Shown in pieces: positions 1 through 9,000 of a DNA stretch of 64,000 nt. The position numbers were made by a program. Within the stretch, counting starts at the first letter, position 1, and each line of letters opens with the position of its first letter. The stretch lies in the NCBI RefSeq assembly GCF_056746865.1, contig NZ_JBWKMP010000005.1, one strand, 5' to 3'. The stretch comes from a plasmid.

Positions 1-3000
1 CTGGTTCTCGATGCCCGTAAGAAAGCCAGCGAGAAGAAACAATTAAAACGTAAGGGATAAAGCCCCGAAGGGCTTTATCATTTCAGCCTGGCTGACTGTA
101 GAATCCAGTGATTTTTTCCGTTTTCGTCCAGGCCGTGTTCGTAAGCTGCAAGAGCCGCTTTCATTATTGCTGTTTTTGTCTGGCCTGTTCGCAGTGCTTC
201 CCGTTCCAGAATATCTTCGTAAACGTCCCCAAGCCGGACATTGGTCACTTTAGTTGCTCCCGATTTTTTGCGGGTAGCTTCATTGATGAATCGGGCTGTG
301 TCTGCATTGGTTTGTTCTGTTTTTTGTCCTGGTATTACCGGAGTTTTCAAGTCAAGAGCCATTATATCACCTTTCGTGTGTTACATTAGCTTTACTGTGT
401 AAAGTTAATGATGTAAAGCTGTCGTATTACATCCATTAGGGATTGATGCCTAACTCTTGCGCCAAAAGCTCTATTTGTGCTTTAGCTGTAGAAAGGCTGG
501 ATGCGCGACGTACATCATGAACGCCAGCGCCTTCATTACAGGCCGCTTCAAAAATATCTAAATCTGAAATACGTGTACGAAGTGGCTGTATCCACACCGG
601 GTTCTCCCGGAGTAACTTGTCGAGATCAATCGCTGCTTTTCTGTGGCGTGGTTTTGTCGTGTTAATTCTCGTGAAAAGTACCCAGGGTTGCAGGTCTGGA
701 TTGATCTGTTGAGCTGTGCGAACTTTTTCTGTTACATGAGTCAGCGTTTCTGCTTCGAAATCTGAAGACGGCTTAACGAGAGTAAGCAGAATGTCAGCTA
801 CAGTTAAGGCACTGCGAAATTCCTTGCTGTCATGCCCTGGACAGTCAATGATCAGCACTTCACATATTTTTTTCAGGCGCTTAATGACTTCTGATACATC
901 GCCATACTCTTCATAAACAGGAACCGGTAATAAGCCATTCTGCTTTCTTTTTTCGTTCCAGCTAAGAATATCATTGTTTTTATCGGTCTTCAGAATGATG
1001 ACCGTTCGTGAATTATTTACCAGATAAGAAGCCAGGTTTGTTGCTGTGGTGCTTTTTCCTACACCGCCTTTATCTGATGCGACAAGTAATGCTCTCCCCA
1101 TAGAAACCTCGGATATACAGTGTAAAGGTTTATTTGTCTTTACATTGTATTCATTATAGTTACGTTGTAAAGATGTTTGTGTCTTTACAATGTAATTGTT
1201 TTTGTGCTTTACATTGTGTGTATGTTACCCAGTGCGCCGTAAAGCCCCGTCCTTCAGGTCGGGGATATAAGGCGCGGTTTTCCACCTAACTAGGTGTTTG
1301 CTGTTGTTCAATGTATTGGCGGATGATGGATATTGGCGCACCTCCGCAGCTACTGGCAAAATAGCTGGGACTCCATAAAACGCCTTTGTAGTAATACCTG
1401 ACTGCAATATCTGGTCGATCTCGTCGCAATAATCTACTCGATACGCCCTTGAGACTGTTCACCAGGGTGGATATCGCCAATTTGGGAGGATAGTTAATTA
1501 GCAGGTGAACGTGATCTCGTTCTCCATCCATTTCAACCAGTTCAGCTTCAAAATCAGCACATACACTTGAAAAGTAAGTGCGTAGTTTTTCTATTGCGTC
1601 ATGGTCAAAAATCTGGCGTCGGTACTTGGTAACAAAGACCAGGTGAACGTGCATCAGGAAGACACAGTGCCTTCCACGTCGGATATCGGTTTCTTTTTTC
1701 ATAGGCCAAAGTATAATTTGGCATATGAAACGACTACAAGCTTTCAAATTCCAGTTAAGACCAAATGGAAAACAGGAGCGTGAAATGAGGCGCTTCGCGG
1801 GCGCATGTCGTTTCGTTTTCAATCGTGCTCTGGCGCTTCAGAATGAGAATCATGAGGCCGGGAACAAATATATTTCTTATGCAAAGATGACTTCCTGGCT
1901 GGTTGAATGGAAAAATGCTACTGAAACGCAATGGCTTAAAGATTCTCCCTCACAGCCATTGCAGCAGTCACTGAAAGACCTTGAGCGAGCCTACAAAAAT
2001 TTCTTTCAGAAGCGTGCCGCTTTTCCCCGATTCAAAAAGCGGGGACAGCATGATGCATTCCGCTATCCGCAGGGTGTTAAGCTCGATCAGGAAAACAGCC
2101 GTATTTTTCTGCCGAAACTGGGCTGGATGCGCTACCGGAACAGCCGTCAGGTCACGGGTGTTGTGAAAAATGTCACTGTCAGCCAGTCCTGCGGTAAGTG
2201 GTACATCAGTATTCAGACAGAAAGTGAAGTATCAACTCCGGTTCACCCTTCAGCATTAATGGTCGGGCTGGATGCTGGCGTGGCTAAACTCGCCACGCTG
2301 TCAGATGGCACGGTCTTTGAGCCTGTAAACAGTTTTCATAAAAACCAGAAGAAGCTGGCGAGACTTCAGCGCCAGTTAAGCCGCAAGGTTAAATTCAGCA
2401 ACAACTGGCAGAAGCAGAAACGCAAAATACAGCGACTGCATTCCCGTATCGCAAATATCCGCAGGGACTACCTTCACAAAGTCACAACGACCATCAGCAA
2501 AAACCACGCAATGATAGTCATTGAGGATTTGAAGGTCAGCAACATGTCAAAGTCAGCCTCGGGTACGGTCAGCCAGCCGGGGCGCAATGTCCGGGCAAAA
2601 TCAGGTTTAAACCGTTCGATACTGGATCAGGGCTGGTATGAAATGCGCCGTCAGCTTGAGTACAAGCAGCTCTGGTGTGGCGGTCAGGTGCTTGCTGTTC
2701 CGCCAGCGTACACAAGCCAGCGTTGCGCGTGCTGTGGTCATACAGCGAAAGAAAATCGCCTGTCACAAAGTCAATTCAGATGCCAGGTATGTGGATATAC
2801 AGCGAACGCCGATGTAAACGGCGCTCGTAACATTTTAGCGGCGGGGCACGCCGTTCTTGCCTGTGGAGGGATGGTGCAGTCAGGCCGCCCGTTGAAGCAG
2901 GAACCCACCGAAATGATTCAGGCGACAGCCTGAACGTAGCAGGAATCCACGTCCTTCAGGGCGTGGAGGATGTCAAAGGGTAACTTTTCAGGATGCGATT

Positions 3001-6000: not shown

Positions 6001-9000
6001 TAACTAGGTGTTTGCTGTTGTTCAATGTATTGGCGGATGATGGATATTGGCGCACCTCCGCAGCTACTGGCAAAATAGCTGGGACTCCATAAAACGCCTT
6101 TGTAGTAATACCTGACTGCAATATCTGGTCGATCTCGTCGCAATAATCTACTCGATACGCCCTTGAGACTGTTCACCAGGGTGGATATCGCCAATTTGGG
6201 AGGATAGTTAATTAGCAGGTGAACGTGATCTCGTTCTCCATCCATTTCAACCAGTTCAGCTTCAAAATCAGCACATACACTTGAAAAGTAAGTGCGTAGT
6301 TTTTCTATTGCGTCATGGTCAAAAATCTGGCGTCGGTACTTGGTAACAAAGACCAGGTGAACGTGCATCAGGAAGACACAGTGCCTTCCACGTCGGATAT
6401 CGGTTTCTTTTTTCATAGGCCAAAGTATAATTTGGCATATGAAACGACTACAAGCTTTCAAATTCCAGTTAAGACCAAATGGAAAACAGGAGCGTGAAAT
6501 GAGGCGCTTCGCGGGCGCATGTCGTTTCGTTTTCAATCGTGCTCTGGCGCTTCAGAATGAGAATCATGAGGCCGGGAACAAATATATTTCTTATGCAAAG
6601 ATGACTTCCTGGCTGGTTGAATGGAAAAATGCTACTGAAACGCAATGGCTTAAAGATTCTCCCTCACAGCCATTGCAGCAGTCACTGAAAGACCTTGAGC
6701 GAGCCTACAAAAATTTCTTTCAGAAGCGTGCCGCTTTTCCCCGATTCAAAAAGCGGGGACAGCATGATGCATTCCGCTATCCGCAGGGTGTTAAGCTCGA
6801 TCAGGAAAACAGCCGTATTTTTCTGCCGAAACTGGGCTGGATGCGCTACCGGAACAGCCGTCAGGTCACGGGTGTTGTGAAAAATGTCACTGTCAGCCAG
6901 TCCTGCGGTAAGTGGTACATCAGTATTCAGACAGAAAGTGAAGTATCAACTCCGGTTCACCCTTCAGCATTAATGGTCGGGCTGGATGCTGGCGTGGCTA
7001 AACTCGCCACGCTGTCAGATGGCACGGTCTTTGAGCCTGTAAACAGTTTTCATAAAAACCAGAAGAAGCTGGCGAGACTTCAGCGCCAGTTAAGCCGCAA
7101 GGTTAAATTCAGCAACAACTGGCAGAAGCAGAAACGCAAAATACAGCGACTGCATTCCCGTATCGCAAATATCCGCAGGGACTACCTTCACAAAGTCACA
7201 ACGACCATCAGCAAAAACCACGCAATGATAGTCATTGAGGATTTGAAGGTCAGCAACATGTCAAAGTCAGCCTCGGGTACGGTCAGCCAGCCGGGGCGCA
7301 ATGTCCGGGCAAAATCAGGTTTAAACCGTTCGATACTGGATCAGGGCTGGTATGAAATGCGCCGTCAGCTTGAGTACAAGCAGCTCTGGTGTGGCGGTCA
7401 GGTGCTTGCTGTTCCGCCAGCGTACACAAGCCAGCGTTGCGCGTGCTGTGGTCATACAGCGAAAGAAAATCGCCTGTCACAAAGTCAATTCAGATGCCAG
7501 GTATGTGGATATACAGCGAACGCCGATGTAAACGGCGCTCGTAACATTTTAGCGGCGGGGCACGCCGTTCTTGCCTGTGGAGGGATGGTGCAGTCAGGCC
7601 GCCCGTTGAAGCAGGAACCCACCGAAATGATTCAGGCGACAGCCTGAACGTAGCAGGAATCCACGTCCTTCAGGGCGTGGAGGATGTCAAATAATTGCGA
7701 TTTTGCCTGGTGTGTTGTTGCGCCCGTAGCTCGCTGACGCTCACACGCGCAGTACAGCGCCCCGCCCTGCTGCAATGCACCAGGACGGCGTGAACTCGCT
7801 GGCGCTCGCGCTAACTGCGGCATTCTGCGGCGCAAATCAGCATGATCATAGCCTGTTGGTCTGTTCTGGCTTTGCAGGGCGAAGGGATGGCCCTGTGCAT
7901 CCTGGTATGTTCGTCAGCGGCTGCGCCGCGCTTCGGGGCGATGTGGCCCCGCTGCTCCCTGGTATTTTCTTTCGCCCCTTCTATCCGCTGGCGCGGATAA
8001 AAAAATGAGCAAACCATCAAATAACTTGCTGTTTTCAGGCAACAAATCTTGATAATACATCTAAATAGATGTATTATTGTTTCATCGAAAGGGGATTGGC
8101 TCCTTTCCTTCTTAAGTCCAAACGGACAGGAGATTTAAAATGAAATTCACTTCAACCACGAATCATGTTTTCACATTCGAACGAGTAACGCTTTGCACGA
8201 TTGTTCTTATTCATAAGGATACGGGACAACAGTATGTTGTCATATTTACGGATAACAATAAAATTCGTGACTATAAGACCGGAATTGTTTCTCAGTTTGG
8301 TGAACTTAAGCAGAGTGATATTGATTTAATTCTTTTCTATCGGGACGAATATGAAAAATATTTTGACTCGTTAAATAATGGCGAGGAGTATTTGAGTTTT
8401 AAAGAATATATCGGATGTATAAGGGGAAAATAAATTATGAAAGGTGTGATCAGGTTGCTGGAACAACCTGATCACGTTATCGACAATCAAAACTGAATGA
8501 GGTTTTTAAATGTCAACGCGGCAGATCGTACAGCTTGCTGACTCCCTTGTCAAAGGCTGGGAAACCAGAATTCCGGCAATGACGTGCACGGAGTGGGATC
8601 AATTCCGGTGGTGGTTAAACTACCTGCAAGGGTATGAAATGTTTTAAATAACCGGGATAAATTCATATATGGGGAGAGTGTCATGCTCTCCCTTTCTTAT
8701 TGTGTAAGCGAGTTGTATTACATATTTAGCTTTACGTTGTAAAGATTTTATTCGTTGTCTTTACAGTGTGGTGTGTTTTCCGGCGGTTGCGCTGCGCTTA
8801 GGGGTATGTGGCTTCGCTGCTCCCTGGTATTTTCTTTCACCCTCCTATTTGTCCGATGACTTTTGACAACAACGCTATTTGTAACTATAATTAGTTGCAT
8901 GTTGGCAAGGGATGGGATTATAGCGTATGGGGAAAGCAGATAAGCTACTGGCAAAATTTTTAAACAGTAAAAAAACGTTTGAATGGGATGAACTCGTTGT

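Follow-up and report, generated by a model that had tools for sequence, protein, structure and literature searches.

A CUP-type regulon with a distinct candidate repressor-operator pair on an mcr-1 IncI2 plasmid

Within a window of 64,000 nucleotides (nt) of plasmid DNA (contig NZ_JBWKMP010000005.1 of NCBI RefSeq assembly GCF_056746865.1), three copies of a long upstream module precede three unrelated plus-strand transcription units, and these modules are the subject of the present analysis. When the module sequence was used as a query, 1143 plasmid records belonging to several incompatibility (Inc) groups were matched, the module always lying 5' of open reading frames (ORFs). The closest matches were Escherichia coli plasmids of 60-69 kb, classified as IncI2, MOBP and MPF_T, with mcr-1 present in many of them, and the window is an mcr-1 IncI2 plasmid. 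The repetition noted in a preliminary description of this DNA, made from the sequence alone, is real: a repeat search of the window recovered a 278-nt family (3165-3442, 3898-4175 and 7868-8145), together with a 170-nt repeat pair in the first and third modules (2994-3163 and 7696-7865).

The modules extend from approximately 2977 to 3436 (module A), 3906 to 4169 (module B) and 7691 to 8139 (module C), and each consists of a core of about 300 nt with 62% GC, followed by a cassette of 145 nt; the measured GC fractions are 0.62-0.63 for the upstream element of the modules and 0.32-0.34 for their promoter part. In module A, the GC-rich core (2977-3291, plus strand, GC 0.63), whose start was set at the first base past the end of an insertion sequence (IS), is homologous to module C from position 2994 and to the CUP (conserved upstream) repeats of plasmid R46. 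The cassette of module A (3292-3436, plus strand) comprises the -35 hexamer TTGATA (3346-3351), a palindrome (3349-3374) and the -10 hexamer TATTAT (3369-3374), followed in the 5' untranslated region (5'UTR) by two hairpins (3384-3404 and 3413-3424), the Shine-Dalgarno (SD) sequence AGGAG (3425-3429) and the ATG at 3437, with which ORF109 (3437-3766, plus strand, 109 aa) begins. Module B is built of a core of 3906-4024 and a cassette of 4025-4169, both on the plus strand, with the -35 at 4079-4084, the palindrome at 4082-4107, the -10 at 4102-4107, the hairpins at 4117-4137 and 4146-4157 and the SD at 4158-4162; it heads a plus-strand operon (4170-5821) encoding a J-domain protein (4170-4685), ORF180 (4789-5331), ORF84 (5328-5582) and HTH80 (5579-5821), a small helix-turn-helix (HTH) protein. 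In module C, the core (7691-7994, plus strand) is followed by the cassette (7995-8139, plus strand), with the -35 at 8049-8054, the palindrome at 8052-8077, the -10 at 8072-8077, the hairpins at 8087-8107 and 8116-8127 and the SD at 8128-8132, ahead of ORF97 (8140-8433, plus strand, 97 aa). The cargo ORFs of 109, 180, 84 and 97 aa gave no match in NCBIfam or Pfam. The GC element recurs a fourth time, in degenerate form (8763-8847, plus strand), 5' of the hicAB promoter (8863-8891, 12/12 consensus), the remnant and promoter together occupying 8763-8891, so that the window holds three full or deleted copies and one remnant.

The near-identity of the 3' unit of the modules was borne out, any pair of copies showing only 2 differences over the final 110 nt 5' of the ATG, as was the joining of one and the same cassette, made of promoter, dyad, 5'UTR and ribosome-binding site, to unrelated plus-strand genes. 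The promoter scan found TTGATA-17-TATTAT, with 10/12 consensus positions, at 3346-3374, 4079-4107 and 8049-8077, and this is predicted to be a near-consensus sigma-70 promoter on duplex DNA. The palindrome first reported across its spacer is indeed present, its 22-nt core AATACATCTAAATAGATGTATT occurring exactly three times in the window against 0 expected (100 shuffles), but its length had been misjudged: the real arms are 12 nt, ATAATACATCTA-aa-TAGATGTATTAT, and overlap both hexamers, covering the final three bases of the -35 and the entire -10. The alternation of TATTAT and TATTGT ascribed to the -10 was not found, TATTAT being present in all three copies; the A/G difference sits 3 nt downstream of the -10. 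As for the additional segment of about 170 bp attributed to modules A and C, the size difference stands, but module B corresponds to A/C minus an internal 168 nt between two GCGCC repeats. The alternative that copy B is a shorter original form was consequently rejected in favor of this internal deletion.

Further copies of the module were found by profile searches in IncX4 plasmids (2 per plasmid), in Yersinia pestis pJARS36, in pEC4115, in an IncX4-like plasmid of E. albertii, in IncX6, in pFOS18 and in one F-like plasmid. In every relative, the modules, in 2-5 copies each, head operons on the strand of the relaxase operon and point to the relaxase gene and the origin of transfer (oriT); furthermore, the gene order of the J-domain operon behind module B recurs in IncX4, pJARS36, IncX6, pFOS18 and R6K. 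In particular, the IncI2 plasmid NZ_CP041921, which is free of IS copies at this locus, has five module copies, three of which share only the first 300 nt, that is, the GC core (95-98% identical), and continue with a different 3' cassette, where TTGATA and TATTAT are kept, the 5'UTR hairpin sequences differ and the dyad (type 2) is ATAGGTCAG-tt-CTGACCTAT. To judge from these alignments, the module has two separable parts, the GC core and the 3' cassette.

For a comparison of the cassettes, 20 copies from eight plasmids were aligned. Complementarity within the dyad amounts to 99.5%, and 5 of its 10 pairs are altered on both sides; these values were reached in none of 500 shuffles, and slid controls gave approximately 40% pairing. 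Both 5'UTR hairpins co-vary too. At least seven half-sites occur, namely, ACATCTA, ACGTC(C/T)A, ACGAC(C/T)T, AGGTCA(G/T), AGGTCG, ACCGCAC and, in R6K, ACCATCA, and for all of them the geometry relative to the -35 and -10 is identical, while an A-rich tract is found 5' of the -35 in all families. The first hairpin of the 5'UTR lies at the predicted 5' end of the mRNA, and the second, a small GC hairpin, abuts the SD. The cassette is thus most likely composed, on comparative grounds, of an A-rich tract, a sigma-70 promoter, a dyad of 9-12 bp between and over the hexamers, two hairpins, an SD and a start codon. The part made of the two hairpins and the SD was also observed between genes inside an operon, without the promoter, in two relatives (L007, 3790-3856, and L008, 11660-11728), which suggests a portable translation-initiation or mRNA-stability unit. 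In R6K (L134, 25623-25700, minus strand), a J-domain operon is preceded by TTGCAT, ACCATCA-aa-TGATGGT and TATACT and is accompanied by an HTH homologue. We considered R6K as a possible link to its published ssi signals and set this aside: only the cassette of promoter, dyad and 5'UTR and the HTH homologue are found there, and the CUP core is absent.

HTH80 (5579-5821, plus strand), the final gene of the module B operon, encodes an MqsA/Xre-type HTH protein of 80 aa and represents the candidate repressor. It matched TIGR03830 (MqsA family, E 3e-7), the C-terminal, DNA-binding domain of MqsA in the PDB (3fmy, E 3e-5) and, more weakly, Aca3 (E 2e-3). MqsA and Aca3 are autorepressors acting at promoter palindromes, and the arrangement described here resembles theirs, a small, presumably dimeric HTH protein being encoded by the operon that it would repress and a palindrome lying over a predicted strong promoter. 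Different from MqsA, HTH80 has no zinc-binding N-terminal domain and no partner toxin; different from both MqsA and Aca proteins, a single HTH80 repressor is predicted to govern several dispersed operons. A homologue of HTH80 is encoded by all 16 plasmids examined, usually as the final gene of a module-driven operon, and each plasmid carries one homologue per operator class: two homologues and two classes in NZ_CP041921, one homologue and type-1 operators only in the window.

The recognition region of the HTH protein follows the half-site class. GVGLSTWQKK is found with ACATCTA, GV[GS]LRTWQKKE with ACGTC or ACGAC, SM[STN]PRTWRRKE and GMTARSWRRKE with AGGTC, GMSLSNWQRKE with ACCGCAC and GFTYTAWQAKE, in R6K, with ACCATCA; over the 5 classes and 16 plasmids there is no discordance, and a Ser/Arg change in the helix goes with an A/G change in the half-site. 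The suggestion, already advanced for the protein encoded at 5579-5821, that it could bind the palindrome is strongly supported by this co-variation, and the dyad is most likely the operator of HTH80, the two forming a candidate pair. The concordance between HTH and operator, which is correlative and drawn among related plasmids, constitutes the main support for a repressor-operator relationship.

With regard to the GC-rich core, a profile of 16 cores searched with nhmmer matched IncN plasmid R46 at five places, upstream of ccgD, ardA, ccgAI and ardB and near repA, with E values of 1.2e-11, 1.3e-10, 6.6e-10 and 5e-9 at the four full R46 CUPs and of 0.009 at the ardB copy. In the alignment, the cores of the window type and the R46 CUPs have in common the blocks CTCGCAGTAC(A/G)GCGCC, ACTGCG and GGCTT(T/A)GCAGGG, an identical terminal hairpin (CATGCCCTGnCGGGCAT) and the start of the 5'UTR (CATCGGGAGG). 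Moreover, a CcgD homologue (49% identity, E 2e-33) lies behind a CUP in one IncI2 relative, and IncN-type CUPs are present in a further 2038 plasmid records. By sequence homology, then, the GC core belongs with the CUP repeats of IncN R46/pKM101, and the modules most likely represent the form taken, in IncI2 and IncX plasmids, by the CUP regulon that was originally reported for the leading region of R46/pKM101. Delver and Belogurov reportedly described the CUP repeats and the CUP-controlled regulon of pKM101/R46 in 1997. What lies in the window is real and biologically meaningful, but it belongs to a known kind of element, namely, a CUP-type regulon that epidemic IncI2/IncX4 plasmids carry with a candidate repressor-operator pair other than that of IncN. 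We found no paper reporting CUPs in IncI2 or IncX4.

The likeness to the IncN system involves both arrangement and sequence. In both cases, several long direct repeats each head a leading-region operon and all point toward oriT; the GC-rich 5' part is homologous and ends in the same hairpin; the 3' part holds a promoter and a repressor site (here the candidate operator), with a homologous 5'UTR start; the cargo gene ccgD is shared with some IncI2 relatives; and recombination occurs between copies. According to published reports (PMC6289460, PMC5371602, PMC6294495), IncN CUPs contain a promoter and a site for the repressor ArdK, a control resembling zygotic induction has been proposed and CUP-mediated rearrangements are reported in IncN2. 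Different from IncN, where the regulators are ArdK and ArdR, the candidate regulator here is an unrelated 80-aa MqsA/Xre-type HTH protein; the spacer has no dyad in IncN, whereas a perfect dyad spans it in the window modules; the cargo genes of this window are not those of IncN; and the hosts are MOBP IncI2/IncX plasmids and one F-like plasmid, as opposed to MOBF IncN. No ArdK homologue was found in the window, the comparison of HTH80 with ArdK giving E 2.1 and that of the window ORFs with R46 ArdK and ArdR giving no significant match.

The core is noncoding, the indels between families disrupting every reading frame, and an Rfam scan of window positions 1-14500 gave no match on the modules. 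Pairing in its helices reaches 96%, five pairs being compensatory, and the helix of greatest length is invariant in both arms; the distance between core and -35 varies from approximately 27 to 62 nt. A search of a phage collection gave no match. A scan of a genome collection with the 17-mer ACKCGCAGTACRGCGCC returned at least 120 loci, a figure that carries no information on taxonomic range: among the matches listed, almost all are chance occurrences in high-GC genomes, and one, on a 668-nt contig of Haemophilus sputorum (L037), is a true CUP. A 54-nt match of the module to colicin plasmids falls in the colicin B region and was set aside as uninformative. The modules are mosaics, ORF109, for instance, lying behind a type-1 cassette in the window and behind a type-2 cassette in NZ_CP041921; such mosaics are the basis on which the role of the core as portable homology for recombination is supported, and long identical cores would allow operons and promoter cassettes to be shuffled or deleted through them.

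In agreement with the preliminary description, the modules and the relaxase gene lie on opposite sides of oriT, and the modules are oriented such that the transferred strand would be the template. A minus-strand block following hicAB includes a homologue of RP4 TraL (12347-13099, E 1e-53), and an intergenic region, presumably oriT, separates it from the mobC/nikA-like gene, which starts at 13887, and from the relaxase gene (14225-18538, 1437 aa), both on the plus strand. The TraL-like leader operon, which we take to resemble the leader operon of RP4, is divergent from mobC and the relaxase gene, and the same layout is found in R64, R46 and F. Within the presumed oriT region, approximately ten copies of TGTGGG(T/C) (13560-13730) are followed by an inverted repeat (13763-13812). 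The IncP-type nick motif YATCCTGY was absent from the oriT region of the window, and we therefore infer the transfer polarity of this IncI2 plasmid, with its leading side and transferred strand, by analogy. In the F-like relative (L137; GCA_949813155.1, contig CATKVO010000003.1), whose oriT region is 88% identical to that of F, four full modules lie on the traM strand; the transferred strand is therefore the template in an F-type context. In that plasmid, which has an IncFII repA and traM/traJ, four modules made of a CUP core and a type-1 operator (2992-9123) replace most of the F-type leading region.

Taken together, it is possible to hypothesize, with a probability that we would place at about 0.7, that the modules are duplex sigma-70 promoters shut off by the autorepressor HTH80, which would result in a burst of expression in a repressor-free recipient. 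HTH80, produced from the last gene of the module B operon, would repress its own operon and the other module-driven genes. Upon entry of the plasmid into a recipient devoid of the repressor, the region would turn duplex and the strong promoters would fire, until the repressor built up and shut them off, as in classical zygotic induction. A comparable logic is known for the establishment genes of plasmids of Gram-positive bacteria such as p576 (PMC6294495): there, entry relieves the repression of a strong promoter, which a plasmid-encoded repressor subsequently silences, and single-strand promoters play no part. In sequences, proteins and hosts, those systems are unrelated to the present one.

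Several points weigh against this repressor-based mechanism. For IncI2 and IncX4, the activity of the promoters, the site where transcription starts and the binding of the HTH protein are predicted from sequence, and repression, timing after transfer and the IncI2 transferred strand are likewise inferred. The plasmids in which HTH and operator agree are related to each other, and the number of independent events is accordingly lower than 16. In the F-like relative, the HTH gene is frameshifted after WQKK while the operators are intact. Lacking an ArdK homologue, the window, as far as can be told from its ORFs, does not contain the IncN circuit itself. The dyad is complementary up to the innermost pair, which is more than a dimeric HTH protein should need and fits selection for a hairpin. 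In addition, no role is assigned by this mechanism to the GC core, the best-conserved part of the module, and the minus-strand fold beats the plus-strand fold in 14 of 16 core copies, even if only slightly.

In a tentative and less likely addition to, rather than replacement of, the repressor mechanism, the target of the GC core would be the single strand that enters the recipient, on which the core would either prime synthesis of the complementary strand or form a replication roadblock, and it would thereby set when the adjacent downstream duplex-only promoter becomes active. The core is conserved from IncN to IncI2, IncX and F-like plasmids, some of its helices show compensatory change, and it always lies 5' of the promoter, so that synthesis primed there would traverse promoter and gene; in the F leading region, a roadblock formed by structured single-stranded DNA is resolved by UvrD (bioRxiv 10.64898/2026.01.09.698686). 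On the other hand, the z values of the core fold are mostly -1 to -3 and approximately 0 in IncX6 and pFOS18, the 16 copies not being independent; G-T and A-C mismatches on shared helices (15 vs 18) indicate no strand preference; the main core helix, invariant in both arms, would equally fit a protein site on duplex DNA; 168 nt of the core are missing from module B, which belongs to a plasmid lineage that is widespread; and R6K has the promoter cassette without any core. If this role were true, the core would be a second, non-Frpo coupling of DNA entry to early gene expression, and it would decide when each leading-region operon turns duplex and its repressor-controlled promoter fires.

The preliminary description had instead likened the modules to the Frpo/ssi elements of F and ColIb-P9, in which case the incoming minus strand would fold so that RNA polymerase could transcribe the plus-strand genes before the complementary strand is made; the features that define such elements failed when tested, and we regard this explanation as improbable. 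It is true that the orientation of the genes suits the transferred strand as template, that, on either strand, the complete module gives a more stable fold than its shuffled versions (z approximately -4.3) and that the lack of homology is not decisive, new non-homologous classes of single-stranded DNA promoters having recently been found in IncI1 (PMC12672017). However, searches of the F (L011) and R64 (L012) leading regions with core and promoter profiles gave best E values above 1, and blastn of the modules against all plasmids returned no F- or I1-type leading regions. When the minus strand of seven module types was folded with DNA parameters, only separate short hairpins were obtained, with no long stem rebuilding the -35 and -10; near the promoter, the transferred strand forms only the terminal hairpin of the core, the dyad hairpin and the two 5'UTR hairpins; a conserved pairing partner for the -35 is lacking, and the stretch from the core to the -35 shows no conservation from one type to another. 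No sigma-70 -35 or -10 boxes were found on the minus strand of the GC core. Furthermore, the duplex form is predicted to be a 10/12 consensus promoter with an operator, whereas Frpo promoters are reported to be inactive as duplex DNA (PMC12672017). Compared with the Frpo/ssi elements of F, ColIb-P9 and pESBL (classes 1-3), the modules are similar in being repeated elements of the leading region that have the transferred strand as template, and their purpose, early and transient expression in the recipient, would be similar too. They differ in having no sequence similarity to them, in forming no long hairpin that rebuilds the -35 and -10 and in the consensus-like, operator-bearing duplex promoter, which argues against inactivity as duplex; shut-off would come here from a repressor and there from conversion to duplex DNA. 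The actual kinship of the modules is with the IncN CUP repeats, which the preliminary description had not considered.

It also seems quite unlikely that the dyad and the 5'UTR hairpins act solely as nucleic acid structures, be they cruciforms or hairpins of single-stranded DNA or RNA, with the HTH protein unrelated to them. The dyad complementarity that extends to the innermost pair, G-T intermediates included, the co-variation of the 5'UTR hairpins and the occurrence of one 5'UTR cassette between genes without a promoter (L007, 3856; L008, 11728) would agree with such a role. Against it, the dyad lies upstream of the predicted start and hence outside the mRNA of its own module, the operators within a plasmid share a half-site matching the class of the resident HTH protein, even in plasmids with two classes, and a position between the -35 and the -10 is the classical one for a repressor site.

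Lastly, it is very improbable that the repeats arose passively through IS activity or recent duplication and lack a regulatory role: identical IS200/IS605-family copies do adjoin modules A and C and an IS-end-like hairpin precedes module B, but the same modules are present in IS-free plasmids, the IS copies are simply inserted at TTAC, and the modules are conserved across several incompatibility groups, in over 1100 plasmid records and invariably 5' of ORFs. The two IS copies (1229-2976 and 5943-7690) start directly after TTAC and end in TCAA, and modules A and C start one base past their ends. Since in NZ_CP041921 TTAC is fused straight to the module sequence at both places, the IS copies are later simple insertions 5' of modules A and C; the presence of modules in IS-free relatives also answers the earlier question of whether the repeats merely belong to the IS ends, which they therefore do not.

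Each IS copy, with tnpA and tnpB, is inserted after TTAC immediately 5' of a CUP module. At their right ends, weak Rfam matches resembling HgcC (2866-2989 and 7580-7703; E 2e-4 and 3e-3, both under the gathering threshold) could stem from the guide RNA of TnpB. Immediately ahead of module B (3858-3890), and also in the IS-free relative NZ_CP041921 (L004, 18013-18045), there is a solo hairpin (CCGTCCTTCAGGGCGTGGAG) that resembles the right end of the IS; it could be a remnant, or else a miniature element derived from an IS.

IncI2 and IncX4 plasmids are the main vehicles of mcr-1 colistin resistance, and their establishment in new hosts is largely unstudied (PMC8744291). The CUP-type regulon ties IncI2/IncX4 to IncN and to at least one F-like plasmid, and it seems to be a widely distributed alternative to single-strand promoters of the F type. 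HTH80 and its operator provide a concrete candidate master switch for the early genes, and HTH80 supplied in recipients could in principle blunt plasmid establishment; the operators and recognition helices that co-vary in nature offer ready material for the study of specificity. Most of the remaining novelty resides in the GC core, present in thousands of plasmid records.

As a further observation, at least six sets of TGTAAAG-N8-10-CTTTACA dyads occur in the window (1102-1217, 5846-5916, 8748-8770, 9562-9617, 10081-10254 and 10626-10696), one of them overlapped by a weak Rfam match resembling GcvB (10621-10751; 29 bits, gathering 42, E 0.003) that is probably due to chance. These dyads precede a parA-like gene, encoded at 436-1101 on the minus strand, and occur at the borders of operons immediately ahead of CUP modules; they could be the sites of a second regulator or of a partition (centromere) protein, for example, the 93-aa product encoded at 78-362 on the minus strand.

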